From assembly GCA_017503265.1 (NCBI GenBank), contig JAFVTK010000028.1:1-48651 (forward strand): a stretch of 48,651 bases of DNA. Reading direction: 5' to 3'. A program made the translations under genes and the position numbers. The DNA comes from Clostridia bacterium. Its GTDB lineage: Bacteria > Bacillota > Clostridia > Christensenellales > Borkfalkiaceae. The notes beneath the pieces were generated by a model. That model saw only the letters and a list, made by a program, of their open reading frames with translations. It searched no databases and was not told the DNA's origin. Of this stretch, positions 20,531 through 38,940 are shown piece by piece; within the stretch, counting starts at the first letter, position 1; each line of letters opens with the position of its first letter.

Positions 20531-23407
20531 TTATACAACGTTGATATAATAGGTTTGGACGGCGTAATTTCCGCAATTATCTTGCACGTAATAATAAATT
20601 ATCCATTCCCCTTTAATATCGGGAGTGAACGTGTGATTAGTAATCATTCTGTATGATGCGTATGGAGTTCTTGCATAGATCGCGTAAGTCAAATCACTAT
20701 CAACGTTATCCAAAACGATTGCTTTAGGTAATTCTAACGATTTTCCTAATTTAATTTTTGTCGTAACGTTGTCTTTAAGTGTAATTGAAGGTGCAATATT
20801 ATCAAAACACTCTATATTAAAACTTACATAAGTCGTATTACCTTCTTTATCATACGCCTCGATAGATACGCGATAACTACCGAAATCAGTAATTATAAAC
20901 GAACATTTTCCGTCTTTTCCAACAGCATAAGAGTCTTTTCCTTTTGTAATAGTTACGTCAATTTTACATTCGGTGTCAAATAAATCATAACTAGAATAGG
21001 TAAACGAAACAATGTCGCCGACGTTAGCAATTCTGCCAACGCTTGATAAAGAAATCGTAGGATAAGTTATATCTGTTGCATTTACGGTAAAATCTTTATT
21101 TCCACAAAAATCAGAAAACTCAACGGCAGTATTTCCGCTTGCTTTTTCGGTAAACATTTCAAAGAAAACTTTTCCGCTTGCAAATCCGTTGAAAGTTTTA
21201 CCGTTTGCATACTTGTCAATCATACAAATTGACGTATTTCCGTCGTAAATCCATCCGTTGACATAAGACAAATCGTATAAAGTTGCAGATTTTAATCCGT
21301 CAATTTTATCATTTTCAATTTCATCCAAACTACTTCTGTCAAGCGGGGCGCCGTTTATCACGAAAGATTTATCGCCTACAATCAATAAACTCTCCCTTGT
21401 GTTTTCATATTTAATAGTTAAATCAACGTAATTTTCTTTTGCCAAAGAATCGTAAAGTCTAATCTTTATTTGAGATTCCGTCGAAGAATCGTAGAAATTA
21501 AATTCAAATTGAAGATTTTCGTTACTAATTGCATTGACAAATGAAACTCTTCCCGTTTCCCCGACTGTTTTAAATACGAAGTTGTTGTTAAATTCAACCA
21601 ACTCTACGCTATTACGAATAAAATAATCACTTACAAGATTGCATTCTTTACAATTTATTAAATATTCTTTTTCAATCGTATTACTTAAATCAGTAACTTG
21701 CGACACGGTAATTTTTAATTTGTATTCCCCTTCGTTTTGAGGAACAAAACTATTAGAATCTAATAATCTATACTGACTGTCGTTAGGCTCTTTGATTTCA
21801 TATTTTACGATAGCGTCAACGGTATCACTAAAAGAAATATAGTCTATCGCTTTAAATTCAGGGACTACAACTTTCGTACCTGCCACGACGTTTTCGGGCA
21901 TTACGGGGAATTCCACCGTAGGCTTGTCGCCAAACATTGCGTTTAAGAAATAATCAAAACTAAATTCTTGACCGTAATAATCCCATACTACGTATCTTAC
22001 TGTATATACGCCTTGCTTATTTATGCAAATAATGTCTTCTTCTATTTCAACAGTTTTACCATCGTGAAAAACTTCTATTCTATAATCTTTGTTTATAGTT
22101 CCACCGTAAATAATAGGTTTTGGTAACGATATTGTTTCCCCAACAGTGCTTTTACTTTGTACTTCTCGTTCAAGACTAATTTCTATATCGGGAATAACGT
22201 GTTTGATTTCTACTGGAGTTACTAACTTGCCCGTATTGCCAAATCTGTCTTTTGACGTTGTTACAATATAGTAAATCCCTGCTTTATCAGGCGTAAATCT
22301 ACCGTTTACTACTTTGTATTCAACTTGACTTGCTTTATTGTAATTATAATAAACCTTGCTTTCAGTTTGGTTTATATACCCGTCTAAAGCGTCGTAAGCG
22401 TAAAAATCCATAACAGGCATAGGTCTATTAACTTCACCACACAATTTTCCGTCAACTTGAGTTTTTTGTATCACGGTTGGCGATATTTCGTCAACTATTT
22501 CACCCTTGGTAAAATCCATACCGTTAAATCCTAATATTGCAACGGACGCTTTTCTTCCCGAAGTAATGTTGATAAATCTAATACTCACTTCAAGTTCGTT
22601 AGACTCAAAACCCGTCCAAGGAACGTCCGTTCCAATCATGTGAGTTCCTTCATCTAAATCTCTTACTAAAAGTCTTTCGCCTTTATTTTGTCCGGTAACT
22701 GAATATACGCATTTCGTTTCTTCATCAATCGACAAAAATCCCCCGAGAGGTAAATACGGATCATATCCTTCGGGAACACCGTCTAACGCAGAGAAACAAC
22801 CTACGTGGCTTGCCTTTAACCCTGCGCCCCAGTTTCTGTTCACTTCCATAAAGCCAGCCGTAAATCCCTCAACGGATTGTCCGTTAGCACCAACTCTTCC
22901 CGACACTACATTCCTATAAGTCGACGAGTCAGGTCTGTTCGTCGTTCTAAAAACCACGTATTTATCAGGATTATTAACGTCTTTTATCGTTATTTCAAAA
23001 GATTCAAAATCGCTATCCGCAGGTCCATTAATTCCAGCATCTTTAAATGTTTGTAAATTTGTTGGAACTATAAACCATTCTACAATATTAAAATATTTTG
23101 ACAAATGGTCACGATTTAAATGAGTTTTAAAAGTAAACACAGTATTAGCCGATTCGGTTGACAAAACCAAAACTTCATCAATAGTTCCAACCGTATCAAT
23201 AGCGTCAGACTTCCTATTTATATTATATTTATCAAAAAACGGATCAATCTTTTTAAAAGCAACTTCTCCGCCATTAGAAGTTACAATTTCTTCTAAAATA
23301 ACAGCGTCTTCTTTTTCTATACTATTATCAGCATTTGCTATTACAACACATAAAGAAAGACAAATGCTCATTATTAAAGTAAAAATAAGTATAATTTTTC
23401 TTTTCAT
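20531..23407 (-). CDS. Large secreted multi-domain protein A (two copies of the unclassified module plus Ig-like DUF5011/HYR-type repeats), 958 aa
   Basis: Signal peptide MKRKIILIFTLIMSICLSLCVVIANA. Ig-like repeats carry G.Y.V.Y.V.D..GN signatures (GIYYIVTTSKDRFGN, GVYTVRYVVWDYYGQ, GSYRVSIEAYDKEGN, GEWIIYYYVQDNCGN). No C-terminal anchor. Confidence 0.8.
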   Translation of the reverse strand: MKRKIILIFTLIMSICLSLCVVIANADNSIEKEDAVILEEIVTSNGGEVAFKKIDPFFDKYNINRKSDAIDTVGTIDEVLVLSTESANTVFTFKTHLNRDHLSKYFNIVEWFIVPTNLQTFKDAGINGPADSDFESFEITIKDVNNPDKYVVFRTTNRPDSSTYRNVVSGRVGANGQSVEGFTAGFMEVNRNWGAGLKASHVGCFSALDGVPEGYDPYLPLGGFLSIDEETKCVYSVTGQNKGERLLVRDLDEGTHMIGTDVPWTGFESNELEVSIRFINITSGRKASVAILGFNGMDFTKGEIVDEISPTVIQKTQVDGKLCGEVNRPMPVMDFYAYDALDGYINQTESKVYYNYNKASQVEYKVVNGRFTPDKAGIYYIVTTSKDRFGNTGKLVTPVEIKHVIPDIEISLEREVQSKSTVGETISLPKPIIYGGTINKDYRIEVFHDGKTVEIEEDIICINKQGVYTVRYVVWDYYGQEFSFDYFLNAMFGDKPTVEFPVMPENVVAGTKVVVPEFKAIDYISFSDTVDAIVKYEIKEPNDSQYRLLDSNSFVPQNEGEYKLKITVSQVTDLSNTIEKEYLINCKECNLVSDYFIRNSVELVEFNNNFVFKTVGETGRVSFVNAISNENLQFEFNFYDSSTESQIKIRLYDSLAKENYVDLTIKYENTRESLLIVGDKSFVINGAPLDRSSLDEIENDKIDGLKSATLYDLSYVNGWIYDGNTSICMIDKYANGKTFNGFASGKVFFEMFTEKASGNTAVEFSDFCGNKDFTVNATDITYPTISLSSVGRIANVGDIVSFTYSSYDLFDTECKIDVTITKGKDSYAVGKDGKCSFIITDFGSYRVSIEAYDKEGNTTYVSFNIECFDNIAPSITLKDNVTTKIKLGKSLELPKAIVLDNVDSDLTYAIYARTPYASYRMITNHTFTPDIKGEWIIYYYVQDNCGNYAVQTYYINVV

Positions 23408-23426
23408 AAAATCCTCATATAAACAT

Positions 23427-24296
23427 TTATCCTTTTAATCCACCGATAGAAACAGAACCCATAATCTTATTTCTAAATATTAAAAAGATAATAATTATTG
23501 GCATTGAAACTAAAATACAACCCGCCATAATATAGGGAACTCCCGTAGTTTTACCTCCTGCTCCGGGGAACTGGAAAGTATGTAATGCGTACGCTACGGT
23601 TGGCGTACTTGGGAAATACATAAGTGATGCTTGCCAATCGTTCCAGTAAGTTATAAACTGCATAAGCGACAAAGCAAAGAAAGTGGGTACAACCATAGGT
23701 ATCATAATAGCGAAAAATACTTTAAAATGAGATGCACCGTCTACAAATGCCGCTTCTGCATACGTCCAACTTACACTTTTAAAAGTTGCGTAGAAAATAA
23801 GAAAGTTAGTTCCTCCGAAACCTATCTTCATCAAATAGATTCCAAGCATATTGTCATAAAAGCGCAAGGTGTTCATTATTTGAAGTTCCGCAGCGAGCGT
23901 TCCTACAACGGGTAAAATCATATTTACTACGACAAACGTATAAATAATATTTGCAATTTTCCCAGGATATTTTGATACTACGTAAGCAACTATGCAGTTT
24001 GTAAAAACGTGTATTATTGCACTTATAAAAGCATAACTTAAGCCGTTAAAAAACAATTGCGGTAACTTAATTTCTTTTACACCGTTTATTGAAACAGATA
24101 AAGCGTCAAAAACGTCTACGTAGTTAGAAAATAGCCATTTCTTTGGCAAACCGAAGGGATTTGATATGTATTCTAATCTTTGCTTTAAAGACGTTATAAA
24201 CGTCCAGATAAAAGGACAAATTAACGATATACAATATAAAATCAATAAAACAAAAAAGAATATAGAGAAAAATGAATTTAACGTTTTCTTTTTCAT
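23427..24296 (-). CDS. Carbohydrate ABC transporter permease (CUT1, LplC-like), 289 aa
   Basis: Six TM segments and the EAA loop AEAAFVDGASHFKVFFAIMIP. GGAGG SD. Confidence 0.9.
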   Translation of the reverse strand: MKKKTLNSFFSIFFFVLLILYCISLICPFIWTFITSLKQRLEYISNPFGLPKKWLFSNYVDVFDALSVSINGVKEIKLPQLFFNGLSYAFISAIIHVFTNCIVAYVVSKYPGKIANIIYTFVVVNMILPVVGTLAAELQIMNTLRFYDNMLGIYLMKIGFGGTNFLIFYATFKSVSWTYAEAAFVDGASHFKVFFAIMIPMVVPTFFALSLMQFITYWNDWQASLMYFPSTPTVAYALHTFQFPGAGGKTTGVPYIMAGCILVSMPIIIIFLIFRNKIMGSVSIGGLKG

Positions 24297-24309
24297 ATAT
24301 CCCCTCCTT

Positions 24310-25233
24310 TTAGAATTCTGCTTCTGGACCGTATTTTTCTAACACGTATTTAATAATCAACGTGATAGGTGCTGCTACAAGTGTAAACAATACGCCGAAA
24401 GCACTCGCATACGGATATGATGCAGGCGTAGAATTTTCACCTATAACCTTAACGAACATAAAATAACCTAGCGTTCCTATATCTTCCGGCGCGAAATCCC
24501 CGTAGAAATTATAGACGTGCGCTTGACTTGTGAAGAGCCCTGCAACGCCAGTTACTATAAATACGGTTATCGTTGGGAAAATAAGGGGAAAAGTTATCTG
24601 CCAAAACTCTTTCCAAAGAGAAATTCCTTCAAGTTCTCCAACTTCAATTAGTTGATCGGGAATTCTTGACATTGCTCCAAGCGACAAAATAATATTTGCG
24701 CCTATGCCAACCCAAATATTATAAACAATCATTACGCCCAATTTCGTTTCATCATAAAACACGTTAGGCGCTTGTTGCCCCATTGCAACGTATAATTTGG
24801 GAAGTAATTTGTCAACGAGATATTTAAACATTAAAGTAATAACTATCGCCGACACCATTTGTGGCAAATAACACATTATTTTAAAAATCTCCGCACCTGG
24901 GATTTTCTTATAAATAAAGTATGACGTGAATACGGAAAGCGGTAAAATTATAAGCATATTTACGCCATAAAAAATAATTGAATTTTTAGTAGCCGCTTTT
25001 ACTTCGTAGTTATTTGACAAATCATAAAAAACTTGTTTAAAGTTTCCAAAACCCCAAAATGTATAATCCCCTCTATCGTATTGCTTTAACGATAATAACA
25101 CGGAGTTTAGTTTAACCCCAACATTAAACACGCAAAAAAACAAGATTGGAATGCAAAGCATTACAAACATAAAAATATACGTATTTTTTTTGCCTGCATG
25201 CTTTGCCTTTAAGTCTTTAAAATATGCTTTCAT
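24310..25233 (-). CDS. Carbohydrate ABC transporter permease (CUT1, LplB-like), 307 aa (ATG at 25233)
   Basis: EAA-like loop EVGELEGISLWKEFWQITFP. The ATG at 25233 overlaps the SBP stop (TGATG) and has an AGGTGA SD. The ORF-track TTG at 25236 is less likely. Confidence 0.9.
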   Translation of the reverse strand: MKAYFKDLKAKHAGKKNTYIFMFVMLCIPILFFCVFNVGVKLNSVLLSLKQYDRGDYTFWGFGNFKQVFYDLSNNYEVKAATKNSIIFYGVNMLIILPLSVFTSYFIYKKIPGAEIFKIMCYLPQMVSAIVITLMFKYLVDKLLPKLYVAMGQQAPNVFYDETKLGVMIVYNIWVGIGANIILSLGAMSRIPDQLIEVGELEGISLWKEFWQITFPLIFPTITVFIVTGVAGLFTSQAHVYNFYGDFAPEDIGTLGYFMFVKVIGENSTPASYPYASAFGVLFTLVAAPITLIIKYVLEKYGPEAEF

Positions 25234-26852
25234 CAATTCTCACCTGAGTAAATCTTCTTCCAATCTTCTTTGCCCGTATTAAGTAAAGCAACCATATAAT
25301 CGCTTACGGTTAAAGACGACATCGATTTATCTTTAAATTGGTTTAACGGATTGTTAAGCGTCTTACCATCCGAAGTCACGCAACTCCATTCCCAACCCAT
25401 TTCATCAAAATAAGAACAGTTTTTGTAAATGTAGGGATTATCACAAAGATTGTAACAAATATCACTTGCTTTTAATGCTTGCCATGCAGTTTGATAATAA
25501 TAAGGCATTACTTTTAAATCGTCACTGCTCATCTCGTAATTCATAAAACGAATATTACCGCAAGTTTTGGTACAGGTAATTAAAGCCTCGTCGCTATTTA
25601 AGTATGCTAACAACTTTTTCGCGCCTTCTGCTTGTTTTGCATCCTTTTTAATATGCAATGAAGAGTTTGGCGAAGACATAAAGTAAGTTGACTTAGTCGC
25701 AAGCGCATCTTCAAACCATGGGAAAGGCATTACGCCGAATTTTCTATTCTTATACTCATCCGACATTTCAGCCATCATATCCATAGAAACTTTCGCTTCG
25801 TTATGCCAGTGTCCGCCGTCGATAAAGAAAGCGATAGGATACACGTTCTTTTGAGTTTTTGCATTTTCCATACTCATAAGATAGGTATCTTGCGCTGTTA
25901 AGTAGTCCATACTTGCGCCACCCGCTTGAGAATCGTAATAACCCTTCTTACAAATGTCGTAAGCAAACTGTAACGCATCTTTTTTACCGATAGAATTACG
26001 CAATAAATAAGCGTTTGCAGGAGTAATCTTCGTAGGTTCGCTATCACCTGCAAAAGTGTATTCTCCATTCATATGTTTAAACGTATTGAAAGCGTCAACA
26101 CCGTCTTGGGCAACAGAACAAGCGTGTAAGAAATGTTGAGAATATCCGTTGATTGACGACCAAGTAAACGGAATTACGTTTCTTTTCTTCATTCTGTCTA
26201 AAAGTTTTAAAAATTCAGCATAAGTTACAGGCAATCCGTCGTCGTAAGTTCCGGCAACGCCGTCTTGTCCAACTGATAAATCACCCGACATACTACACCA
26301 GTTTCCGTTTTTATCTAAGAAAAACTGCTTTTGGTCAAACAAACCCACGTCGTAGTTAAGCGAATAGAAACCACCGCCGAAAGGAACGTTGTAGAACTTT
26401 CCGTCGTAACTCGTTACGTAGTCTTTCATATCTCCCCACATTTTACTTGCAATAGTTTTTGTTTCCGTTACGGGGATTTTAGAGTCTGCTAAATATTCGT
26501 TAAGCGGAGTCGTAACAACGTCCGTTATGTCCATCAACTTATTTTGATCTAAATAAGAATATAAATCTAATCCACCGTAAAAAATATCTTGGTCGATCAT
26601 ATCTATTTTCTCAAGCAAAGAAGTAGAATCGTAAGATTTTGCATAATGTACGTCAACTTTATATTGCGGATACATTTGCTCAAATTTTGCAATGCTTTGA
26701 TCAAGCCATTCTCTACCCCAACCGCCTTCGTAGCAACCGAAGTAAATATGCTCTTTACCGTCGTCTTTATTTTTCTTACAACCAGCAGTACCGCAAAGCA
26801 GAGATACCGCTAATATTAACACCGTAACAATACTAATCAATCTTTTCTTCAT
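25233..26852 (-). CDS. Extracellular solute-binding lipoprotein (large LplA-type sugar SBP), 539 aa
   Basis: Lipobox LLCGTAGC-K. Size and composition are typical of family-1 SBPs for oligosaccharides. AGGAG SD. Confidence 0.88.
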   Translation of the reverse strand: MKKRLISIVTVLILAVSLLCGTAGCKKNKDDGKEHIYFGCYEGGWGREWLDQSIAKFEQMYPQYKVDVHYAKSYDSTSLLEKIDMIDQDIFYGGLDLYSYLDQNKLMDITDVVTTPLNEYLADSKIPVTETKTIASKMWGDMKDYVTSYDGKFYNVPFGGGFYSLNYDVGLFDQKQFFLDKNGNWCSMSGDLSVGQDGVAGTYDDGLPVTYAEFLKLLDRMKKRNVIPFTWSSINGYSQHFLHACSVAQDGVDAFNTFKHMNGEYTFAGDSEPTKITPANAYLLRNSIGKKDALQFAYDICKKGYYDSQAGGASMDYLTAQDTYLMSMENAKTQKNVYPIAFFIDGGHWHNEAKVSMDMMAEMSDEYKNRKFGVMPFPWFEDALATKSTYFMSSPNSSLHIKKDAKQAEGAKKLLAYLNSDEALITCTKTCGNIRFMNYEMSSDDLKVMPYYYQTAWQALKASDICYNLCDNPYIYKNCSYFDEMGWEWSCVTSDGKTLNNPLNQFKDKSMSSLTVSDYMVALLNTGKEDWKKIYSGEN

Positions 26853-29547
26853 TTTCGACTCCTTTTTTCTTCACCTTTTTTAAAACGATAATCACAAAGA
26901 TTCCTCCCGCAATTACTAACGCTCCACCTATTGATGCAAATATTATCCAAGCGTAATTTCTTGCGCCTACTTGAACTTCATAAACGTAAGTTGAAGTATT
27001 TCCCGAAGCGTCTAACGCAACGATTTTAACTTCGTAAACTCCTTCTTCTTTAGCGATAAATTTATTATCTACAATAGAAACAACTTTGCCGTTGAAGGTC
27101 ACGCTTATCGTATAACCTGTATCCAATTCCGAATTATCTGAAACTTGAACGGTTGCAAGTTCAACCGTACTTCCTTGCGACGAAGTTTTAACTTCGTTTG
27201 ACGTTTTTATTATAGGCGCAACTTTGTCCGTTAAGTAATAAATAAATTCACACGATTTACTACCCGACTCATCTGACACCGTGTAAACGATATTATATAC
27301 GCCGATTGATTTAGGCGTAAATTTACCGTCGGTTACAGAAATTTCGGTATTCTCAAACAAAACTTTGTACGTTCCGTTTTTAAGTTCGTTGCCGTAAAAA
27401 TCTTTTGCTTTGGGAACTTCAATACTTATCTCTTGTCCAACGTCAAACGTTTTATCCGTAGGTGTTTCAATTTCTATCCAATTCGTCTTTACGTCAATAA
27501 AAATGTTTTTACGAATAACGTATATATCTGCAATGTTAATTACGGCAGAAATACAATATAAACCCTCTTCGTTAAACGTTGCCGAGTAAGAACCTGATTT
27601 AAACTGTGACGTTACGTTTTCTACGCTCTCACCGTGAACTTTTTCAACCGTAAAACTTTCCGTACTGCTAAAATATCCGTATGGGAAAACAACTGCTTTT
27701 CCCTTTAACGCTTTAACTCTAACAGAGTCTGAATCTAAAGATGAGCCTTCTACTAATATGGTGTTTGTAGGAACTTTACCCACCGATATAGACGGAAATT
27801 CCTTATATACCGCTATTTTTCTTTGTGCAGAAACGATTTCTCCATCGTAATGGTATTCATATAAAACGTCGTATACACCCTCGTTTGCAAAAGAACTTGG
27901 CGTTAATGCATTCCATTGTCCACCGTTTAAACTGACGCTTATATTAACTTTAGTCGGATTGATTTTTACTCCGCTTACCGCATTTATCATTAAATAGTCG
28001 TTTGCAGTTGGCAAAACAATATCTTCGTTCGCCCTATATAAAACGGACTTTAAAATACCATCGTTTAATTTTAATGCGTAACTGCTTACGTTACACGAAA
28101 AAGACTTTACGACTTTTTGTCCTAAATAGTCGGTTACTTCGTATTCAAAAGTATATTCGCCGTCTTCTTCAAAACGATAGATAAAATCAGCGGGGCATAT
28201 AGCCTTTGAAACAACGACACCGCCGTCTTTTTTTATCGTAAGATAGACTTCCGGTAAATCATCTTGAATATTGCTACTCAAAGAAAAACCAGCGTCTATT
28301 TCGTCGTATATAAGATAGTTACGTTCTACTCCGTTTAAAGTAAGGTTTGAACCGCCTGTTTGCAAAACTGACACTTTAAACGAATACGTCTTTTCTACGT
28401 TTTCGTTTGGATCTATAACGGAATACTCTATCGAGTAAATACCCGCTTTAGTCGGCGTAAATTTTAAATCGTCCGAATATGCAACTTGATCTAATACAAC
28501 GCTATCATCAGGATCTTTTACTGTAACCTTTCCACCGAGTGTTTCAAAATTATAAGACAATGTTTTTGAAAAATATAACGGTTTTGGAACTGTAAATTCT
28601 TTGTTAATAATACCTTTATTTTTATATTCAACCTTATAATTACCCGTCAATACGTTTCCGCCGAGCGAAAGTAATAAAATAGAATAATCGTTATTTTTCT
28701 TGTTTGCAAAATCAACTTTAAAAGTTAAATTGCTCAAGTCGTCAAACCCTTCCCAAATGGTTGATATAATACTGTTACCTTTTTTATAATCGGCTTTGTC
28801 TAAATCACGAATTCTCCATCTTCTTTCACCGTTAGGAGCAAGTTTATACTTATCGGTGAGCGTCCATTCTGCATTTTCGTCGTCGTCACGCCATTTAAAG
28901 CCCATATCTGCATAAATTGCGTTTTCTTCACGGTCGTAATAAATACCTATTACACCGTTTTGACCCGCAACCGCTTTATTTCCGTCTTTATCGTAGAAAT
29001 TAAACCACGAAAAATCTGCGCCGTAACCGTCAAAAGTATAAGGAGAAATAGCCGCGTATTCGTCTGCTAAATACGATTCAGTTTCAGCCCAGGCATAATT
29101 ACCTTGATGTTCGCCTAAAAGCGTTTGGTTTTGTCCCGACGCAAGTCCGCAAATGTAGTTCCACTTTGGAGCGTCTGCTTTTCTTGGAATAAAACTAACC
29201 GACAACGCTTTTCCAGTAGTATCCGACAGCGTAAACGTCAATTTTTCAAAGTCGGGAGTATATAATTTGCCATCACCCCTTTTCGAAGGGGTGATTACAA
29301 ATTGAAATATAGGAGTGTCCAAATCACAAGACGACAAATCAACCGATTCTTTAAACGTATCAACGTTGTTCTTGTCAATTCTAACGCCTGCATAATCTAC
29401 CCCGTCGTAATTAACGACGGAGATAGGATATTCAGTTTTTGCTTGTGCGGAAAAATTGCCAACTCCTAAACAAGCCAACAAACAACATAAAGCCATAATT
29501 ATTGCCGACAATTTTCCGCTTATTGTTTTGAAAATCTTATTTTTCAT
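26833..29547 (-). CDS. Large surface protein B (one unclassified module plus about six Ig-like repeats, C-terminal TM anchor), 904 aa
   Basis: N-terminal signal or lipobox-like segment ALCCLLAC. Repeats include GIYSIEYSVIDPNEN, GEYTFEYEVTDYLGQ, GVYNIVYTVSDESGS and GVYEVKIVALDASGN. The C-terminus is WIIFASIGGALVIAGGIFVIIVLKKVKKKG. The stop overlaps the SBP start by 20 nt. Confidence 0.8.
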   Translation of the reverse strand: MKNKIFKTISGKLSAIIMALCCLLACLGVGNFSAQAKTEYPISVVNYDGVDYAGVRIDKNNVDTFKESVDLSSCDLDTPIFQFVITPSKRGDGKLYTPDFEKLTFTLSDTTGKALSVSFIPRKADAPKWNYICGLASGQNQTLLGEHQGNYAWAETESYLADEYAAISPYTFDGYGADFSWFNFYDKDGNKAVAGQNGVIGIYYDREENAIYADMGFKWRDDDENAEWTLTDKYKLAPNGERRWRIRDLDKADYKKGNSIISTIWEGFDDLSNLTFKVDFANKKNNDYSILLLSLGGNVLTGNYKVEYKNKGIINKEFTVPKPLYFSKTLSYNFETLGGKVTVKDPDDSVVLDQVAYSDDLKFTPTKAGIYSIEYSVIDPNENVEKTYSFKVSVLQTGGSNLTLNGVERNYLIYDEIDAGFSLSSNIQDDLPEVYLTIKKDGGVVVSKAICPADFIYRFEEDGEYTFEYEVTDYLGQKVVKSFSCNVSSYALKLNDGILKSVLYRANEDIVLPTANDYLMINAVSGVKINPTKVNISVSLNGGQWNALTPSSFANEGVYDVLYEYHYDGEIVSAQRKIAVYKEFPSISVGKVPTNTILVEGSSLDSDSVRVKALKGKAVVFPYGYFSSTESFTVEKVHGESVENVTSQFKSGSYSATFNEEGLYCISAVINIADIYVIRKNIFIDVKTNWIEIETPTDKTFDVGQEISIEVPKAKDFYGNELKNGTYKVLFENTEISVTDGKFTPKSIGVYNIVYTVSDESGSKSCEFIYYLTDKVAPIIKTSNEVKTSSQGSTVELATVQVSDNSELDTGYTISVTFNGKVVSIVDNKFIAKEEGVYEVKIVALDASGNTSTYVYEVQVGARNYAWIIFASIGGALVIAGGIFVIIVLKKVKKKGVENEEKID

Positions 29548-29553
29548 AATACC

Positions 29554-32500
29554 TTATTTGTTATCGTTTTTTCTTTTAATCGCAACGATTGCAACCATTG
29601 CAAAAAGTCCAAGGAAAGCAGAAGACGTTACAGAACCCATACAACCGCCGCCATTTTCTTCGTTTTTAGTCCAAGATGCGTATAAAGTAGTCGCTCCAGT
29701 TATTTTTTCACCGTTATATTTTTTAGTGCATTCTTTATCGGTGAATAATCCACCAAACGTATAACCATCTTTAGAAATTGAACTTGTATCAACTGCTTTG
29801 TCATATTCAACTTCAATAGTAGTATTGGCAAAAAGACCGTTTACAATAGTTACAGTAAACTTTTTAGCAATCCACTTTGCAGTTAAAGTGATATCTTCGG
29901 TTAATGCGTTTCCAAATACGAATTTTTCTTCGCCTAAATACCAACCGTCAAAATCATATCCTTCTTTAGTAGTAGTTTCGGTAAATGCGGTTACCACTTC
30001 GCCTTCGGTGTATTCTTTAGCGTCGATAGGCGTACCGCCTGCCGTATCAAAAGTGATAACGTAAGGCTTTAATCCGTAAACCGCATAAGCAGTAACGTCA
30101 CCCGTTATTGCACTATCGCCGTCTATTGACCAACCTTGGATTATATAACCTGCTTTTTCAGGAATTTCAGGAGCGGTTACAGCGCTAAATAAAGTGCCGT
30201 ATTCAACGTTTTCAACAGTATCTAAAAGGTCGTCGCCAACCATATAAGTTACGGTATAAGTTAATTTTTTGAAGGTTGCGGTATATCCAACGTTATCCGA
30301 TACGTCTTGTGCGTCGTAAGTATAATAACCGTTAACAACGTCGGCAGTTACGTCTACTCCACCGATTGTGAAAGTGTCAAGTTCATAACCTTCGCCTGCA
30401 ATAATTTGAATGGTGTTTCCACCCTCAAGTAAGATTGCTTCGCCGTCTAATCCGTTTACTTTTACGCTACCGTTTTCAACTGCTGCGTTTGCCATAATAC
30501 GGGTTTTAACTTCAAACGCTTTACTTACCACGAATGAATCAGTTGAAACGACGATTTCATATATACCTCTGTCTAAAACTACTGAAGTCCAAGTAGAATC
30601 AACCGCGCTATCTGTAGAAACGACTGTTCCGTCTTTAATTAAAACAATTTCAGCGCCCTCTAAAGAAAGGGTATCTTCTGCGATTAAGGATAAATCTGCA
30701 AGAGTTAATACGTTACCTTTAGCAAGTCCTGCTTTAACTTCAAAAGAAGATAATGCAACCAACTCACCTTGTATAGATGCCGAAGAAGTAAACGTAGTTA
30801 CACCTATACTTTCTTCATCAACAAAGTATTCTACCTTATATTCACCAACTTGAACGAAATCAAACTTGCCGTCTACAACGTCACTGATTTGTCCGTCAGG
30901 AGTGGTAATTTTAGCGGTGAAATCTTCTGCGTCTAAATCAACTTTGCCTGCAAGAACGTTATGTCTGAACGGAACGGGAACGCTTACGTCTTTACCTGCT
31001 AAAACTAAACCGTCGCTAGGAGCAAATGCTTTAGCAGATTCGCCTGCGGTAATTTCAACCTTTCCGTCTTTATCCGTGCCGAGTTTTTGTCCGTCAATTT
31101 CTAAAATTCTAACTTTTACAGAGTCAAAACCTTCAGTTAAAGTTGCAGTCATTGAGAAACTTAAAAGTTTATCGCCAAATCCTTCAAAAGCGTTTCTTTG
31201 ACCGTCGTAAGTACTACCAAGGTCTGCAATCTTCCAACGTTTAACGACTACGCCGTCAGGTCTTGTAAAGTTAGTATAATAATCTGCTTTCCATCTACCG
31301 ACGTCAGCGTATAACGAGTTATCTTCCGCATTATAATAAATTGCAAAAGTTGCGTTTGAGGTAGCGTGAGCATCCGTTCTTATATTGTTACTTGAGTACG
31401 CCGTTGCCGATTCTCCCGCGTCAGTATCAACACCGTATTGATCTAAAAGTACAGTTGCCGGATATCTAGGATATCTGTCGAACTGATATGGAATTGGGTA
31501 ACCAAATTCGCCTTTATTAAACGCCGTCGAATTGTTTTGCGCCCATCTTTCTTCACCGTTTACCGAAACGGTATAACAGTTACGGAAATTAATTATATTA
31601 TCTTCAGCATCCGCCTCAGCGAAATCTCTTAAATTAATTAAAAGTTTGTCCGTTCCGTCAGTCAATTCAAATGCTAAATTGTAAAGTCCCGAATTGTTTA
31701 CGGCTGTTGCTTTACCAATATGTTCAGGATAAACTTCAAACTCTACGAGTTTAGTAAATACGTCGTTATCCGAAAGCATTACGTTATAACCTTCAGATAA
31801 AGAAAGTATGCCGTCGTCAGCGGTAAACTCTTTTAATAAACCGCTCGTTCCTTTGTTTGCTTTTAAAGTATCGGCAGTTGCGGTGTTTACTTGCTGACCT
31901 GCTAAACTTGTAATAACGATATCGTGAGTTCCTTGGTATGCAGGGTTCCAGTCTACGTGCATAGTAACGGCTACGCTCTTTGCCTCTTCTTCGGTAAAGC
32001 CGTTCCAAGCAATTTTTGAATTGTATTTTGCAAAAGCACCCGAAGTTCCGTAACCGCCGTTACCGTGAGTTGGAGTAGCCGCGTCTAAAAGTAAGAAATG
32101 ATTATCTCCGTCTTCCGTAGTAACGTGATATTTACCTGTTTTATCATTAGTTACGTATGCGTCGAATTGGGTGTAACTTACAGAGTTTACGTAAAATTTA
32201 GAAGTTTCGTAATCGTAATAAACTTCCGCAGGATAAATTGCGCAATAATCACCCGAGTTACTTGGGTTTTTACTCTTGTTTATATATCTATATTGCTCAA
32301 CGGATGCTTTGTCAGAAACGGACGTTGGCATTGAACCGTCAAATCTAAACGCATAACAACCCGTTGGATCGCCTGCTTCAACCGAATAATACGTACCGGG
32401 GGTATTTCTCGTTCCTTGACCAAGGTGAATATTGTGTCCGTTAAAAGCCACACCTATTGAAGAGTGAGGAGTTTTAGACTCGTAATTTTGCACCATTGCT

Positions 32501-33030
32501 ATGTCGAAATATTTTTCAGGATTTACGGTTGACCTAAACGTATAATAAATACCAAGATAAGGATTAACCGAATCAGCAGGTGCTTTAGGTCCTAAAAAGT
32601 TTACCGTAGGTAAAAAACCTATTACGGGTTCTTCGTCAGTTGCCTTACTTTGCGATAAGTCAACTACACCCATATCTAAAGTAGTAGTTCCGTCTAAAGT
32701 AAGTTTTGCGCCTGCATAACTCCAAGCCTTGCTTACGTCATCAGTACCGATAGGCATATTAGCCATACCGTTTACTGATACATTAGAACCGTTTTCTACG
32801 GTAGCAAGATAACCGCCAACAGTTCCACTAGGAACGTATTTATTGATTAAGTAGTTTGCGTCAGAGATTGTTGCAACTTCAAACAAATTACCCGATGGCG
32901 CAATTCCTCCTGTAAACGCACCAGTAGCGGTTGCATCCGCTTTTGCCCTAATATTAAGCGACGCTACGCCTAATACCATCATAACGCTTAATAAAAGCGC
33001 AACTAAAGATGAACGTGTTTTTTTCAACAT
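29554..33030 (-). CDS. Large surface protein C (two unclassified modules, Ig-like domains, three Listeria-Bacteroides (Flg_new/InlB-B type) repeats, C-terminal TM anchor), 1158 aa
   Basis: Signal peptide present. Flg_new-type repeats are KAGYIIQGWSIDG, KEGYDFDGWYLGEEKF and KDGYTFGGLFTDKECTKKYNG. The tail is SSAFLGLFAMVAIVAIKRKNDNK. AGGAGA SD. Confidence 0.85.
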   Translation of the reverse strand: MLKKTRSSLVALLLSVMMVLGVASLNIRAKADATATGAFTGGIAPSGNLFEVATISDANYLINKYVPSGTVGGYLATVENGSNVSVNGMANMPIGTDDVSKAWSYAGAKLTLDGTTTLDMGVVDLSQSKATDEEPVIGFLPTVNFLGPKAPADSVNPYLGIYYTFRSTVNPEKYFDIAMVQNYESKTPHSSIGVAFNGHNIHLGQGTRNTPGTYYSVEAGDPTGCYAFRFDGSMPTSVSDKASVEQYRYINKSKNPSNSGDYCAIYPAEVYYDYETSKFYVNSVSYTQFDAYVTNDKTGKYHVTTEDGDNHFLLLDAATPTHGNGGYGTSGAFAKYNSKIAWNGFTEEEAKSVAVTMHVDWNPAYQGTHDIVITSLAGQQVNTATADTLKANKGTSGLLKEFTADDGILSLSEGYNVMLSDNDVFTKLVEFEVYPEHIGKATAVNNSGLYNLAFELTDGTDKLLINLRDFAEADAEDNIINFRNCYTVSVNGEERWAQNNSTAFNKGEFGYPIPYQFDRYPRYPATVLLDQYGVDTDAGESATAYSSNNIRTDAHATSNATFAIYYNAEDNSLYADVGRWKADYYTNFTRPDGVVVKRWKIADLGSTYDGQRNAFEGFGDKLLSFSMTATLTEGFDSVKVRILEIDGQKLGTDKDGKVEITAGESAKAFAPSDGLVLAGKDVSVPVPFRHNVLAGKVDLDAEDFTAKITTPDGQISDVVDGKFDFVQVGEYKVEYFVDEESIGVTTFTSSASIQGELVALSSFEVKAGLAKGNVLTLADLSLIAEDTLSLEGAEIVLIKDGTVVSTDSAVDSTWTSVVLDRGIYEIVVSTDSFVVSKAFEVKTRIMANAAVENGSVKVNGLDGEAILLEGGNTIQIIAGEGYELDTFTIGGVDVTADVVNGYYTYDAQDVSDNVGYTATFKKLTYTVTYMVGDDLLDTVENVEYGTLFSAVTAPEIPEKAGYIIQGWSIDGDSAITGDVTAYAVYGLKPYVITFDTAGGTPIDAKEYTEGEVVTAFTETTTKEGYDFDGWYLGEEKFVFGNALTEDITLTAKWIAKKFTVTIVNGLFANTTIEVEYDKAVDTSSISKDGYTFGGLFTDKECTKKYNGEKITGATTLYASWTKNEENGGGCMGSVTSSAFLGLFAMVAIVAIKRKNDNK

Positions 33031-33123: not shown

Positions 33124-36100
33124 TTAAGCGGTAAAATCTTCTACCTTAAGATTAATTTCAACCTTCCAGATACCCAACGCTTCACACATGGTCTTAAACG
33201 TTGCCTTATCTGCGCCCTCATAACTACACTTTATTTGTAAGTATCTGTAAAACATTGATAAATAATCTAAACGTCTTGTAATTTCTGCATTTCCGCTAAC
33301 TGAAGAGTAAGCGTTATCAAATATAGTTTTAGTTTGACTTACCCAAGTGCTATTATATCTACTCTTTAACTCGCTTACGGTTAAATCTTCGCCAAGAGAG
33401 AACTCTTTTGAACCGAAAACGCTTTCTATCTTTGAAATGTACTGCAAAACGTAACTAGCCGCAGCACCGTAATAAGCGTTTATAAACTCATCTCTTAAAT
33501 CGTTATAAGAAAGAGATGAATCCCAGTACATTCTACTTCTAATCCAGTCATCCATTTCGGCAAAAGGATAAATTGAAATTTTTTGATAATCCGCAACTCC
33601 TTGCGCAAAAATTTCTTTTACGCCAAGCGATTTAAAATATTCAATGTTTGCTTCGGTAGACTTTTGGAATGGGAGTGGTTGAAGGTAATGGCGGAAGTCT
33701 GCTCTATAATCCCAAATTGCAAGGTTTGCAGCAACTTTTGCCCAACCGTCAAAAATGGTTTTCCACGTAATTCTATTAGTCCAACTGTCGTCATAATAAT
33801 TATTGCTTGCGGTAATGGCTTTAGAATAGTCTAAAGTAATAGGCGCAATTCTTATGATTACGTTGTCGGCAACCGTAACTCCACCTTTTGGCGGTTCGAT
33901 AAACGCGTGATATGCGTATGCCATTAAATAAATTTCTCTTCTTGGACAGTTCATTGCTTGCCAAGTCTTTATATCGCTTGCAAGTTTATTTACAAAGCGA
34001 AGATACACACCGCTTTCGCCGTAAGTGTTATATGCAGATTTACACTGCGAACATTGACAACTTGAAGAAGTATCTACCACACCTATTTCATAATAAATCT
34101 TTTGAGGATTATTTACAATAATAGTTTTTAATTTTTCTAAAACTATATCGTACATTCCGTTATCGTTATTGTACGCTCTTGTAAAACATATTTGTCTTAC
34201 CTTACCGCTTTCCTTATAATACCAGTTGGGATTTTCCGCTCCGTAAGTAAGCCCCGTGCCAAAATAGTCCCAAGAAGAATCGTACGGTAAGAAATAAGTA
34301 ATCATACTTTGGTCGTCAAGCGTTTGAGAAAAAGGAACTACGTTATAACCGTAATTGCCCGTTTTATAATCGTTATTATCAGTATAAACGTAACGAGAAC
34401 CCGTATCGTAAAGATGCATATTGATATACGCCGCTTTCATATTCGCAGGCATATTTAAACCGTCGCCCGTGTAATAGCCTCTTCTAGTTAATTCACTATG
34501 CATAGAACGATATCTAAAATCAGGGAAATCTTCGTAGTTAAAGTTTTTAAGCGTTTGAACGGGACTTTCATCAATTACCGCGCAATCATAAGCGTAATAC
34601 ATATAGCCAAAGTTTTCTTCTAAGAATCTATACATACCGTAGAATAATGCGTAATCGTCTTCGGCGTAAATAGCAACGCCGTCGCCATACGATTTTATAC
34701 CGAAACCGCCTTGATTTTTTGTGTAAGACGAAAGGGTTAATTCAGATTTTTTTTTAAGTTCCGTGTCGCCTAACGATATATACTTAGTTGTAGAAGAGTC
34801 GTAAACACTTACGATGGGCATTTCTGCCCCGTAAGTGTTTTTAATTATCGACTTTAATTCTTCTGCAGCAAAGAGTTCGCTTTGACTGGGAAAGGAAGGA
34901 ACTAAAATAGCGTAGTCGGTTGTGCCGTTATCGATAATAGTAACCGCTTGTTCTACTGCATTTTTAATTCTTGTTGGAAGAGTAAACGTAACGTTAAGTT
35001 TATCACCCGAATCTTCCATTATAAGCGTACTTCCGTTAGCCCAATAAGCCGCTCCGTCATAAACCAAACATCTTACTCCGCTTGCTCCCGAAACAACCAA
35101 ACTAATGGTAGTTTCAGTAGTAGAAACTGAATCAACGGTGTAAGTTGCATCGTCGTTTGCCTTAACGCCAAGCGTGTTTACGTCTATTACCTTATTTAAG
35201 TAATTGTTTTGAAGGAATGTCTTAATTGAAGTAGCGGTAGTTTCATCCATTCCTGCATATTCGTCTTCGTCGTTATATGCAGATTTTGCAACTTCGTAAG
35301 CACTTCTTGAATTGTCTGTTTCGGTATAATTTGAATAAACAAATCCCGTCGTACCGTCGTCGTAAGAAATTTCAACGTAAACTCTTGCAGAGAATTCTCT
35401 TGCCATATTAGTTGCTTTAAGGTGAGTCATAGTAACGTAGAAATGAGTTAAATCTGCACCTTCAACGGTATTTTCAGCAGGTTGCTGATACATTGAGCCG
35501 TCTTGATAATCGTCTAAGGTAAACGCCTTGTTTTCAATATAATCGGTAGGAGCAAGTATCATACCGTATTCTTTGATATTATCTTGAATACTAGCGTCAA
35601 TTTGACTGTCAATAAAGCCTCTAAATCTTAAGCCGGTATAACCGCTAATTCTAATAGACGCGCCTGCCTCGGTATAGAAATCAAGGTATGCAAGTTTATA
35701 TTCCTTGCTTTCTGCTAAAACAACGCCGTTTAAGTCGCTAATGTTCTTTAATAAAGTACCGTCATAATAACCGATTACTCTGCTTTCTTCATTGCTGAAA
35801 AGATCTCCAACGTTTACGATATCATTTTCATTGAGAACAAAAGATTTACCAGTCGTAGTGTCGATAATCGACATATAGGGGCTTAAACCTAACTTATCGT
35901 CTAAAATCTTACCGTCGAATTTTCCGCCTTTTTGAGTAGCGAAAGAAACTCCGTCAATACCCATAATGAAAAATCTAGTCCACTCTTCGGTAATAAGTCT
36001 GTTAGACCTTTCAACGTTAACCGAAAGTTTAACTTTTCCGTCGGTAAAACCATTGAAATAATTTGTTCCGTTTGCAGAAACGTCTTTAAATGAACGAATT

Positions 36101-38940
36101 AAAATACCGTTTAAATAAAGTTTACCCGTTTGATAATCGAAATTAACTTTTATGCTTTCTTTGCCTCTTGAGGACAATCTAACGTTATCAAACGATTTAC
36201 CCGTCTCTGCAATATTTGCATCAATTTGTGTAAATTTTGAACCGTCGTCGTAACCGCTATAACCGATGGTAGCGCTAGCAGCCTCCCAAGAACCGACTGC
36301 GGTTACTCTTAAGTTGTTCATTGATACTGCTTGACTACCGTGCCACGCATCCCATAAATATAACGCGATATATTTAGTACTGTCACTTGCGTCCGCAATA
36401 ACTATTCTATAAGCCTTTGCTTGGTCGTTTTCTCCGTTGTTTGCATTAGCGTCAGCGGGGAAATAAAGTTCAATTAACGTATCGCTTTCTTTGTTATCGC
36501 TAATATCTACCGCTTTATCAAACGCCACGCCCGGTTGATTCTTTGACGTGCCGGCTCCAAAGTTATAAAGCCAAGGATTGTTCTCATTATCAGCAGTCGT
36601 TTGGTTGATATATTTAGTTTCTTTGTTTCGAGTATAGACCATAAGTCCTGAACCTGAAACGCTTGCTCCATTTGATGCCGAACTTGTAAATTCACCGTAA
36701 CTTATACTCTTAACATTTTCGCCGTTTATTGCCGAGAAGTTTGCAACAAACGAATCCGTCGTTACGGCAGATTCATAAATATAAACTGAGGATTTGAAAA
36801 CCCTTCCACTTGCTACGTAAGTTACTTCGTATTCGCCAACTTCGGTAGGTACGAATTTATCGTTTGTAATTTGAATTTCATCTCCCGACGGAGCAACGAC
36901 AGAAAGATCGTAATCGCCGAGTTCGGAAACGGCGCTAGGAGTTGTAAACTCGTAAGTTTGACCTTTTAAACCTCTTTCTAATGCGTCTAAATAAGTGTTT
37001 TCGTTTGGCTTGGTTGAAAGTTTTTGGCCGTCAAGTTCTAAAATTCTAATCTTAACCGAATCAAAACCGCTCATTAAAGTCGTCGCCATTGAGAAGGTAA
37101 GATTTTTATCTCCAAAACCGCCGAAAGCAGTTCTTGCGCCACTGTAAGTTTCGTCAAGGTCTGCTATCTTCCAACGCTTCACCTTTGTTCCATCGGCTTT
37201 CGTGTGTGTGGTATAATAAGACGTTCCCCATCTACCTGCATCGGTATATAAACTGTTATCTGCAGCGTTGTAATAAATTGCAAACGTTGCCTGGGACATT
37301 CTGTTAACGGACGTGCTTATACCATAATGGGGATAAACACCGCCTACAGTTTCGCCCGCATCGGTATTAGCGCTATACTGGTCTAACACCCAAGTTATAG
37401 GATATCTTATGTATTTATCAAAATTGTACGGCACTGGGAAACCGTATTCACTTTTTCCAAATACACCGCCTTGATCTAACGCCCACTTACTTTCTCCGTT
37501 TACTGAAACCGTATAACAGTTACGGTAACTGCCGTTATCTTCAAAGTTCTTTAAGTTAATTTTAAGGTTGTTGGTTCCGTCCGACAAATTGAAAGCAACT
37601 TCAAAAAGACCTGAGTTATTAACCGCTTTTGTAGTACCTACTTGTTCTGGATAAACTTCGAATTCTACGAGTTTAGTAAATATATCGTTATCAGAAAGAT
37701 TTACGCTATATCCATCCGATAAAGTAGCAATACCGTTGCTTGCGGTAAATTCTTTCAATACGCCGACAGTTCCCCTGTTTGCCTTTAAAGAATCTGCATT
37801 TTGGGTGGACACTTTTTGTCCTGCAAAATCGGTAATAACGATATCGTGGCTACCCGTATATTCAGGGTTCCAGTCAACGTGCATAGTAACCGCTACGCTC
37901 TTTGCTTCTTCTTCGGTAAATCCCGTCCAACCGCATTTAGAGTTATAGTGAGCATAACTACCGCTTGTACTGTAACCTTTTCCTTCCGTTTTTGCGCTTG
38001 CATCTAAAAGCAAGAAACGTCCTTCGCCGTTAGTAGCAGTTACAAAATAATTGCTATTGTAACTTGACATATACTCATAGTGAACGGCTTGTGTATAAAA
38101 TTTTGAGGTAGCATAATCGTAGTAAACTTTTACAGGATAAACTGCATTACACTCTGCTGTAATTGCCGTGCCGTTTTTCTTAATTTGATTTATATATCTA
38201 CCGTTTGATACCTTCGCAGCGCTAGAAGTATTCGTAGGCATAGAACCATCAAATCTGAAAGGATATCCTCCTATTCTATCTCCTGCTTCTACAGCGTAAT
38301 AAGTGCCGGCGTTAGCGTTTGATTGACCGTAGTGGTTTGCAACACCGTTATAACTAACACCCAAAGAAGAGAACTCGTAAGCCGTACCAGCCTGTCTCAT
38401 CCCTATATCAAAATATTTATCTGGGTTTACAGTTGACCTAAACGTATAATATATGCCGAGATATGGATTAAGAGAATCCGCTGGCGATTTAGGACCTAAA
38501 AAGTTTACTGTTGGTAAAAAGCCTATTACGGGATCTGCATCCTTTGCACTACTTTGCGACAAGTCAACTACACCCATATCTAAAGTAGTAGTACCGTCTA
38601 AAGTAATCCTTGCCCCCGAATAACTCCAAGCCTTACTTGCGTCAGTCGTTACCGTCGGCATATTAGACATAGTATTTACCGTAACGTTTGAAAGTTTTTC
38701 AAGATATCCACCAACAGTTCCGCTATACGAATACTTATTAATGATATAGTTAGTATCCGAAAAAGTGGCTTGTTCAAACAAGTTTTGATTGCAATCAATA
38801 CCGCCGTTAAACATTTGAGAAATGCTTGCTTGCGCTTTAAGTGGACTTTCAACTTTAATATTTAACCCACCTATTGCAACGCAAACACAGGTAACAATCG
38901 ACAATAAAATTAAAATTTTCTGCTTTAAATTTTTCATCAT
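33124..38940 (-). CDS. Giant surface enzyme D: three unclassified modules, Ig-like domain, beta-sandwich, and a C-terminal DUF4838-type putative glycosidase; about 1938 aa
   Basis: The ORF-track start at 38985 has no SD. AAGGAG (38950..38945) precedes ATGATG at 38940/38937, giving MMKNLKQKILILLSIVTCVCVAIGG (signal/anchor). The N-terminal ~650 aa are paralogous to protein C. The C-terminal ~660 aa are paralogous to the lipoprotein at 18506..20521 (CQCSQC...NCP). Confidence 0.85.
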   Translation of the reverse strand: MMKNLKQKILILLSIVTCVCVAIGGLNIKVESPLKAQASISQMFNGGIDCNQNLFEQATFSDTNYIINKYSYSGTVGGYLEKLSNVTVNTMSNMPTVTTDASKAWSYSGARITLDGTTTLDMGVVDLSQSSAKDADPVIGFLPTVNFLGPKSPADSLNPYLGIYYTFRSTVNPDKYFDIGMRQAGTAYEFSSLGVSYNGVANHYGQSNANAGTYYAVEAGDRIGGYPFRFDGSMPTNTSSAAKVSNGRYINQIKKNGTAITAECNAVYPVKVYYDYATSKFYTQAVHYEYMSSYNSNYFVTATNGEGRFLLLDASAKTEGKGYSTSGSYAHYNSKCGWTGFTEEEAKSVAVTMHVDWNPEYTGSHDIVITDFAGQKVSTQNADSLKANRGTVGVLKEFTASNGIATLSDGYSVNLSDNDIFTKLVEFEVYPEQVGTTKAVNNSGLFEVAFNLSDGTNNLKINLKNFEDNGSYRNCYTVSVNGESKWALDQGGVFGKSEYGFPVPYNFDKYIRYPITWVLDQYSANTDAGETVGGVYPHYGISTSVNRMSQATFAIYYNAADNSLYTDAGRWGTSYYTTHTKADGTKVKRWKIADLDETYSGARTAFGGFGDKNLTFSMATTLMSGFDSVKIRILELDGQKLSTKPNENTYLDALERGLKGQTYEFTTPSAVSELGDYDLSVVAPSGDEIQITNDKFVPTEVGEYEVTYVASGRVFKSSVYIYESAVTTDSFVANFSAINGENVKSISYGEFTSSASNGASVSGSGLMVYTRNKETKYINQTTADNENNPWLYNFGAGTSKNQPGVAFDKAVDISDNKESDTLIELYFPADANANNGENDQAKAYRIVIADASDSTKYIALYLWDAWHGSQAVSMNNLRVTAVGSWEAASATIGYSGYDDGSKFTQIDANIAETGKSFDNVRLSSRGKESIKVNFDYQTGKLYLNGILIRSFKDVSANGTNYFNGFTDGKVKLSVNVERSNRLITEEWTRFFIMGIDGVSFATQKGGKFDGKILDDKLGLSPYMSIIDTTTGKSFVLNENDIVNVGDLFSNEESRVIGYYDGTLLKNISDLNGVVLAESKEYKLAYLDFYTEAGASIRISGYTGLRFRGFIDSQIDASIQDNIKEYGMILAPTDYIENKAFTLDDYQDGSMYQQPAENTVEGADLTHFYVTMTHLKATNMAREFSARVYVEISYDDGTTGFVYSNYTETDNSRSAYEVAKSAYNDEDEYAGMDETTATSIKTFLQNNYLNKVIDVNTLGVKANDDATYTVDSVSTTETTISLVVSGASGVRCLVYDGAAYWANGSTLIMEDSGDKLNVTFTLPTRIKNAVEQAVTIIDNGTTDYAILVPSFPSQSELFAAEELKSIIKNTYGAEMPIVSVYDSSTTKYISLGDTELKKKSELTLSSYTKNQGGFGIKSYGDGVAIYAEDDYALFYGMYRFLEENFGYMYYAYDCAVIDESPVQTLKNFNYEDFPDFRYRSMHSELTRRGYYTGDGLNMPANMKAAYINMHLYDTGSRYVYTDNNDYKTGNYGYNVVPFSQTLDDQSMITYFLPYDSSWDYFGTGLTYGAENPNWYYKESGKVRQICFTRAYNNDNGMYDIVLEKLKTIIVNNPQKIYYEIGVVDTSSSCQCSQCKSAYNTYGESGVYLRFVNKLASDIKTWQAMNCPRREIYLMAYAYHAFIEPPKGGVTVADNVIIRIAPITLDYSKAITASNNYYDDSWTNRITWKTIFDGWAKVAANLAIWDYRADFRHYLQPLPFQKSTEANIEYFKSLGVKEIFAQGVADYQKISIYPFAEMDDWIRSRMYWDSSLSYNDLRDEFINAYYGAAASYVLQYISKIESVFGSKEFSLGEDLTVSELKSRYNSTWVSQTKTIFDNAYSSVSGNAEITRRLDYLSMFYRYLQIKCSYEGADKATFKTMCEALGIWKVEINLKVEDFTA

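Follow-up and report, generated by a model that had tools for sequence, protein, structure and literature searches.

Positions 1 to 48,651 of contig JAFVTK010000028.1, from an uncultured gut Clostridia bacterium, are the window analysed here (gene coordinates are those of the contig) and encode four large exported proteins, referred to below as A, B, C and D, that carry copies of one repeated module. The first-pass annotation of this DNA had described the module as unclassified and as present in eight copies. We found that it constitutes a genuinely new domain family, with no known relatives and no detectable structural neighbour. Seven of the copies are firmly united by sequence comparison and the eighth is a probable member.

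Layout of the locus

The window has a low GC content (~36%) and is coding nearly throughout, on the minus strand. The module-bearing genes and the genes that accompany them are as follows (aa, amino acid residues; Ig, immunoglobulin; ABC, ATP-binding cassette; SBP, solute-binding protein).

39252..40319, plus strand: LacI-family regulator gene, divergent from the operon; this adjacency is conserved
33124..38985, minus strand: gene D, 1953 aa as called; signal peptide, modules D1-D2, Ig-like spacer, module D3, middle region and C-terminal DUF4838 glycosidase domain
33436..34560, minus strand: DUF4838 (PF16126) catalytic domain of D, aa 1476-1850; Pfam score of 177 bits, above the gathering score
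29554..33030, minus strand: gene C, 1158 aa; signal peptide, modules C1 and C2, spacers, three Flg_new repeats, Gly-Cys motif, transmembrane segment and KRK tail
26833..29547, minus strand: gene B, 904 aa; signal peptide, module B1, ~550 aa of Ig-like spacers and a C-terminal transmembrane anchor (aa 867-889)
25233-26852, minus strand: SBP gene of a CUT1-type ABC importer, 539 aa; SBP_bac_1 (Pfam)
24310-25236 and 23427-24296, minus strand: two permease genes of the CUT1-type ABC importer; BPD_transp_1 (Pfam)
20531..23407, minus strand: gene A, 958 aa; signal peptide, module A1, Ig-like spacers, module A2 and Ig-like C-terminus
18506..20521, minus strand: gene E; encodes a lipoprotein that combines a GH67N-like domain with DUF4838; the conserved core ends with this gene

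Genes D, C and B, the SBP gene, the two permease genes, A and E form a tightly packed string with intergenic gaps of -20 to +93 nt. This packing, together with the conservation of the gene order across loci, bears out the earlier proposal that the four module genes share one operon with a CUT1-type ABC importer. No ATPase gene of the importer was found in the operon, and the importer presumably draws on a shared MsiK-type ATPase encoded elsewhere.

Reading of the protein sequences places signal peptides at the N-termini of A, B, C and D and a canonical lipobox in E. The DUF4838 domain of E (aa 312-547, 145 bits) and the three Flg_new (PF09479) repeats of C (aa 921-1122, 75.9 bits) exceed the Pfam gathering scores and, like the DUF4838 domain of D, lie outside the repeated module. 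Of the domain combinations originally listed for the module, Flg_new in C, DUF4838 in D and C-terminal membrane anchors in B and C were retained, whereas the Ig-like spacers gave sub-threshold matches only (PF16403, OmpL47-type). Both the GH163 endo-beta-N-acetylglucosaminidase BT1035 and the GH185 6-sulfo-GlcNAcase Sp_0475 have DUF4838 as their catalytic domain (PMC10570127).

Several smaller features of these genes were also seen. A small acidic open reading frame (ORF) of 38-48 aa (MKIYDTPSLEILLIEVSDIVTTSPGNVDGDNEFEDPF...), which has no Pfam or NCBIfam match, lies between the LacI gene and D (38951-39097 of the window, minus strand) and is near-identical across the orthologous loci (3889-4005 in L001, 3980-4126 in L005). 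Because this conserved ORF overlaps the long ORF call of D, the true start of D is probably M16, at nt 38940. At the C-terminus of C (aa 1127-1158; 29557-29652 of the window, minus strand), a G-C-x-[G/S] motif directly precedes the transmembrane helix, which is followed by a Lys/Arg tail. The same combination recurs at the C-termini of the homologues P0004, P0016, P0018, P0023, P0024 and P0026; it resembles a dedicated sorting signal, no NCBIfam sorting-domain model fits it, and B of the window lacks the Cys. Finally, the ~300 residues between D3 and the DUF4838 region (D aa 1021-1307; 35065-35925 of the window, minus strand) have no Pfam match and are a further domain without family assignment; local searches of D with the family hidden Markov model (HMM) gave a very weak, non-significant signal there (independent E-value 0.1-0.3).

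The repeated module: homology, predicted structure and known families

The copies of the module were delimited as follows.

37789..38823, minus strand: D1, aa 55-399 (HMM core 105-395); C1/D1 subtype with a ~50 aa N-terminal extension
37006..37788, minus strand: D2, aa 400-660; C2/D2 subtype
35926..36780, minus strand: D3, aa 736-1020; D3 subtype, tied to the family via the third modules of P0019 and P0024 and via A1
31855..32925, minus strand: C1, aa 36-392 (HMM core 89-384)
31066..31854, minus strand: C2, aa 393-655
28633..29439, minus strand: B1, aa 37-305; the copy modelled by AlphaFold2
22493..23326, minus strand: A1, aa 28-305
21038..21637, minus strand: A2, aa 591-790; shortened and divergent, a probable copy

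All eight positions reported by the first-pass annotation (in residues, A1 30-300, A2 590-790, B1 40-300, C1 40-395, C2 395-660, D1 55-400, D2 400-665 and D3 740-1010) are in frame and hold the repeated module. Its size, originally given as 270-350 aa, ranges overall from 200 to 350 aa, the exception being A2 with ~200 aa. No further copies were found in the other ORFs of the window. Five subtypes are recognisable, namely B, A1, C1/D1, C2/D2 and D3, with A2 as a shortened relative.

Direct comparison by BLASTP linked only the closest of these sequences: C1 and D1 are 63% identical, C2 and D2 are 62% identical, and B1 matches C2/D2 with 25% identity (E 1e-6), while all other pairs of copies had E > 0.05. 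Profiles made from close orthologues only gave links that were collinear and suggestive, yet non-significant for A1, A2 and D3; these three became significant only after distant relatives from an exhaustive HMMER search (see below) had joined the orthologues from the conserved loci in the profiles (Bx, A1x, C1x, C2x and D3x). With these extended profiles hhalign connected Bx to C2x (probability 99.5%, P 1e-22), to C1x (98.9%, P 3.6e-17), to A1x (96.9%, P 1.4e-10) and to D3x (89.8%, P 1.8e-6), and A1x to D3x (97.1%, P 7e-11), all five alignments being collinear over 155-238 columns. BLAST bridges connected A1 with the B-like protein P0020 (E 1.5e-6), and the third modules of P0019 and P0028 with D3 (E 1.4e-19) and A2 (E 2e-4), respectively. 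In an iterative HMM search run locally, A1 joined in the second iteration (3.9e-5), and iterations 3-4 added the D3-like modules of P0019 and P0024. Since D3 of the window never fell below 1e-4 in that search (its best value was 3e-4), its membership rests on hhalign and the BLAST bridges.

The least certain copy is A2. It aligned with A1x over 122 collinear columns (P 3.1e-4) and with a merged A1+D3 profile at 79% probability (P 1.7e-5), and its score against the family profile, 24.9, was reached by none of 150 column shuffles (12.2 +/- 2.1). Given these P-values and shuffle controls, and the strong links among the others, the sequence comparisons firmly support A1, B1, C1, C2, D1, D2 and D3 as copies of one family and make A2 a probable, shortened eighth copy, so that the original count of eight holds with this reservation.

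C and D are 55% identical across their first ~770 residues, and the signal peptide of P0001, a C-type orthologue, is identical to that of D of the window (D aa 16-55). Taken together, these similarities suggest that the paralogues C and D have undergone recombination or gene conversion.

The four landmarks that the first-pass annotation had seen recurring in the same order could be aligned throughout the family. An earlier MAFFT alignment of the B1, C1/D1 and C2/D2 types had all of them in register, and so did a joint alignment of 31 modules that covered all five subtypes. They coincide with strands of the AlphaFold2 model of B1: landmark 1 is the strand pair 67-73/79-86, landmark 2 the hairpin 165-170/175-178, landmark 3 the strand 207-213, and landmark 4 the W-G-F motif followed by strands 239-246 and 254-260. 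This model, built from a 27-sequence alignment of all subtypes, has a predicted local distance difference test score (pLDDT) of 88, a predicted template-modelling (TM) score of 0.89 and 18 beta-strands, and is essentially helix-free; as predicted, the module is an all-beta domain. A first run with a 13-sequence alignment had reached a pLDDT of only 61, which made its Foldseek matches uninterpretable, and the rise from 61 to 88 on pooling all subtypes in one alignment is itself evidence for one shared fold. The copies thus have the mutual homology, shared motifs and single fold expected of a new family, the fold being modelled for B1 and resting on the alignment for the other copies.

These data also bear on the trivial explanation that the copies are unrelated beta-rich regions that are alike by chance. 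Most raw BLAST E-values between subtypes are indeed above 0.05, but the profile-profile comparisons (P 1e-22 to 2e-6) gave full-length collinear alignments, the BLAST bridges through distant relatives are independent of them, and the gain in pLDDT came with all subtypes in one alignment. Chance resemblance is refuted for seven copies and marginally possible for A2 alone; for the family it has next to no likelihood.

Searches of Pfam, NCBIfam and PDB sequences yielded no match for any of the eight copies or for the 27-sequence family profile, and Pfam searches of the 27 family members showed nothing recurrent. The module was therefore rightly called unclassified, and no similarity to a characterised carbohydrate-binding module (CBM) or lectin family was seen in Pfam, NCBIfam or PDB sequence and profile comparisons. 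We found no description of it in the literature on DUF4838 and Scatosoma.

The first-pass annotation had likened the module to LamG/ConA-like jelly rolls, and it may be asked whether it is a very divergent member of that class, a matter of classification that would be compatible with a binding role. It shares with the LamG (Laminin_G_3) modules of bacterial surface glycosidases an all-beta structure and a distal position, and its weak Foldseek neighbours are mostly of the jelly-roll or galectin-like kind, including the N-terminal domain of the coronavirus spike (TM-score 0.31) and phage tail proteins (TM-score 0.31-0.36, probability up to 0.96). However, LamG, Laminin_G_3 and related Pfam/InterPro HMMs did not match the eight copies at E up to 10, nor did these or the Pfam CBM models match the 27 members even at E 1. 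With its 18 strands, the model exceeds the usual 13-15 of a jelly roll. Among 350,542 PDB chains, Foldseek found nothing below E 0.04 for the B1 model, the spike domain having the highest TM-score. The leading matches in BFVD were phage tail or enzyme proteins (E 3.5e-3 to 3e-2). Every TM-score was below 0.4, and no solved two-sheet ConA-like or LamG jelly roll superposed on the model. As this was the outcome for a confident model, the LamG/ConA-like assignment is unsupported, and we regard a distant kinship as doubtful. Green fluorescent protein barrels, which headed the Foldseek PDB list, were discarded as spurious (TM-score 0.12).

Distribution and gene order

The family is very rare. An exhaustive HMMER search of 1.84 billion representative proteins with a profile of the B1, C1/D1 and C2/D2-type alignment returned 16 representatives at E <= 1e-3. 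One of them, the repetitive adhesin P0022, was rejected as a false positive made up of 15 weak repeat matches. All family members come from metagenome-assembled genomes (MAGs) of gut or rumen Clostridia (roe-deer colon, buffalo rumen, Candidatus Scatosoma and other Firmicutes MAGs). A pattern search for the B subtype found four loci in 185,579 species genomes and five in 241 million metagenome records. Among the distant proteins, P0019 and P0024 show the D1-D2-Ig-D3 arrangement with Flg_new behind it; the A-like P0028 has three modules; the B-like proteins are P0020, P0021, P0023 and P0025; and P0026 and P0029 combine a single C1-like module with Flg_new and an anchor. A word-indexed homology search with D aa 1-1030 gave at least 11 matches, all C-type orthologues; it gave three fragments for A1 and one 143-aa fragment for a broad 31-sequence profile, and it overlooks full-length A and D orthologues that are present in its sources.

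The contigs that encode C-type matches, L001-L006, carry the whole operon in the same order and supplied orthologues of A-D with 57-76% identity. The order D-C-B-SBP-permease-permease-A-E is retained in at least five MAG contigs, and L015, L016 and L017 are laid out as the window is. In more distant loci the arrangement varies: L008/L009 read LacI, a B-like gene, SBP (33% identity), two permeases, the three-module A-like P0028 and DUF4838; L010 reads C-like, B-like and SBP; and in L013 four module proteins are followed by an SBP of 35% identity. In every locus with sufficient flank, module proteins are encoded directly upstream of a homologue of the SBP of the window, and DUF4838 glycosidase genes usually accompany them. 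The SBP linkage has outlasted a divergence that leaves the modules barely alignable, which argues for functional coupling to this importer.

Strict adjacency to the SBP gene across distant genomes would also fit modules that serve as protein-protein contacts and assemble A-D, possibly with the SBP, into a surface complex rather than binding glycan. A and D, having no anchors, would have to be retained at the cell by a partner, and several paralogous subtypes always co-occur. On the other hand, the known surface assembly modules (cohesin-dockerin) are much smaller, and variable loops and tandem arrays suit ligand binding at least as well; we rate such an assembly role as quite improbable.

Two loci depart from the usual pattern. 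In one MAG, P0003 (L007 10001-12241, GCA_965321175.1) joins the first ~620 residues of D (D1+D2) to the final ~125 of the lacto-N-biose phosphorylase, and the Thr-synthase-like and galactokinase genes that the window also has come next; either a ~30 kb deletion took out the whole operon or the fusion is an assembly chimera. A D-like protein of 1914 aa from buffalo rumen (L017 1550-7291) has a DUF4838 domain 55% identical to that of D, while its N-terminal ~1300 residues gave no match to the family HMM; the same is true of the 835-aa protein in the C position. The modules of L017 have either been replaced or diverged past detection.

Possible role of the modules

Two DUF4838 genes (D and E) lie in a locus rich in glycan-degradation genes. 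The surrounding island encodes GH28, a GH94-superfamily/rhamnosidase-like protein, GH36, GH5 and a GH112 lacto-N-biose-type phosphorylase, CE15-like and GDSL-like esterases, CE4 and SASA proteins, as well as a GFO/IDH/MocA oxidoreductase, a galactokinase and a SIS domain protein with a PfkB kinase. A pectic or arabinogalactan substrate would agree with GH28, GH112 and the esterases; host glycans would agree equally with DUF4838, GH36 and GH112.

We favour, at a probability of about one in two, the view that the modules are non-catalytic, CBM-like glycan-binding units that capture substrate for the DUF4838 enzymes and the importer. This view draws on their distal N-terminal position, the stalk-and-anchor design of the proteins, the tandem divergent copies ahead of a glycosidase domain and the surroundings rich in carbohydrate-active enzymes. 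The modules would stand at the membrane-distal N-terminal end of the exported proteins, behind the signal peptide, and in B and C the Ig-like and Flg_new stalks would hold them off the cell, with the C-terminal membrane anchor at the end. In D, three copies precede the DUF4838 (GH163/GH185-type) glycosidase domain. At the surface of this Gram-positive gut bacterium the modules may capture a complex polysaccharide or glycoconjugate and present the polymer to the DUF4838 enzymes D and E, and the released oligosaccharides would be kept near the lipid-anchored SBP of the ABC importer, which is encoded between B and A. We infer surface display, glycan binding and hand-over to the SBP from these features.

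The pattern of conservation is in line with binding. Among 39 modules only G262 is invariant and F233, G205, G232, Y177 and Y169 are conserved in 82-97%, while no Asp, Glu, His, Lys or Arg is conserved across all five subtypes. Conservation limited to Gly and aromatic residues indicates a scaffold with variable binding loops or surfaces, not a shared active site. Among orthologues, conservation within A and B is highest in A1 and B1 (79% vs 63-71% and 74% vs 62%, respectively).

Several observations weigh against this interpretation. C1 is less conserved than the remainder of C; no membrane anchor is evident in the sequences of A and D; and no recognised catalytic domain was found by Pfam and NCBIfam searches in A, B or C, though all three belong to the conserved core of the operon. 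The putative glycan-binding module resembles no known CBM or lectin; with ~270 aa it exceeds most CBMs in size and is about as large as beta-sandwich enzymes such as GH16 or PL7. Many charged residues (Asp, Glu, Arg) are invariant within the B subtype and could mark an active site.

Some of these points could mean that the module is itself catalytic and forms a new beta-sandwich domain with endo-glycanase or polysaccharide lyase activity, and that A, B and C, otherwise devoid of catalytic domains, are surface enzymes cutting the polymer to importable oligosaccharides. GH12 and PL14 are likewise all-beta enzymes of comparable size, the first, low-confidence model weakly matched the PL14 alginate lyase vAL-1 (TM-score ~0.3), and the top match in the viral library BFVD is annotated as a glycoside hydrolase. 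Yet all structural matches were insignificant (TM-score <= 0.36), the charged residues of the B subtype have no counterpart conserved through the five subtypes, and the tandem divergent copies ahead of the bona fide glycosidase domain of D look like CBM arrays. We regard a catalytic module as unlikely. Somewhat speculatively, the module might represent a genuinely new fold, which would either found a new family of carbohydrate-active enzymes or serve for glycan capture in a Gram-positive equivalent of the Bacteroidota 'utilisome', with A-D docked around the SBP; we hold this reading to be improbable.

If the modules are indeed CBM-like units, their closest analogues include the CBMs attached to DUF4838 enzymes. 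An example is BT1035 (GH163), an exported glycan-degrading protein in which an F5/8-type C (CBM32-like) domain is likewise an accessory, non-catalytic beta domain fused to DUF4838 (PMC10570127). The module described here has no sequence or detectable structural similarity to that domain, is about twice its size, lies N-terminally, occurs in three divergent copies in D and is present also in proteins without a catalytic domain.

In the Sus paradigm of the Bacteroidota, large non-catalytic surface glycan-binding proteins (SusE/SusF-like) have their genes alongside those for the transporter and the glycosidases in a single locus. The genomic logic here is the same, large non-catalytic surface proteins being encoded next to transporter and glycosidase genes, but the host is Gram-positive, an ABC importer takes the place of SusC/D, C-terminal transmembrane anchors that of lipidation, and the sequences are unrelated.

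Gut Firmicutes reportedly possess Gram-positive polysaccharide utilisation loci (PULs) that combine a regulator, an ABC transporter and multimodular surface enzymes. The system of the window, in which a LacI regulator, a CUT1 ABC importer and multidomain proteins that are anchored or exported and bear glycoside hydrolase domains are encoded together in conserved synteny, the importer and hydrolase-domain genes on one strand, is a recognisable Gram-positive PUL whose principal surface module is new. It differs from known PULs of this kind in that the dominant surface module falls outside the CAZy, Pfam and NCBIfam families and in that the transporter genes are bracketed, in a fixed order, by those of two of the giant proteins. 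Such a fixed arrangement of giant non-catalytic proteins around transporter genes is unusual.

The surface machinery by which gut and rumen Firmicutes deal with complex glycans is far less understood than the Sus systems of the Bacteroidota. Characterisation of the module could enrich the CAZy repertoire by a new family of CBMs or enzymes, possibly also by a new fold, and could reveal how monoderm bacteria couple polymer capture to import. Its extreme rarity and confinement to a narrow clade of uncultured Clostridia limit the breadth of such findings, yet make it a clean test case.

At the edge of the window, an ORF with a phage GP88 domain (PF17338; 47711-48451, plus strand) lies on the strand opposite to the operon, at a flip of the GC skew; together these may mark a prophage or island boundary.

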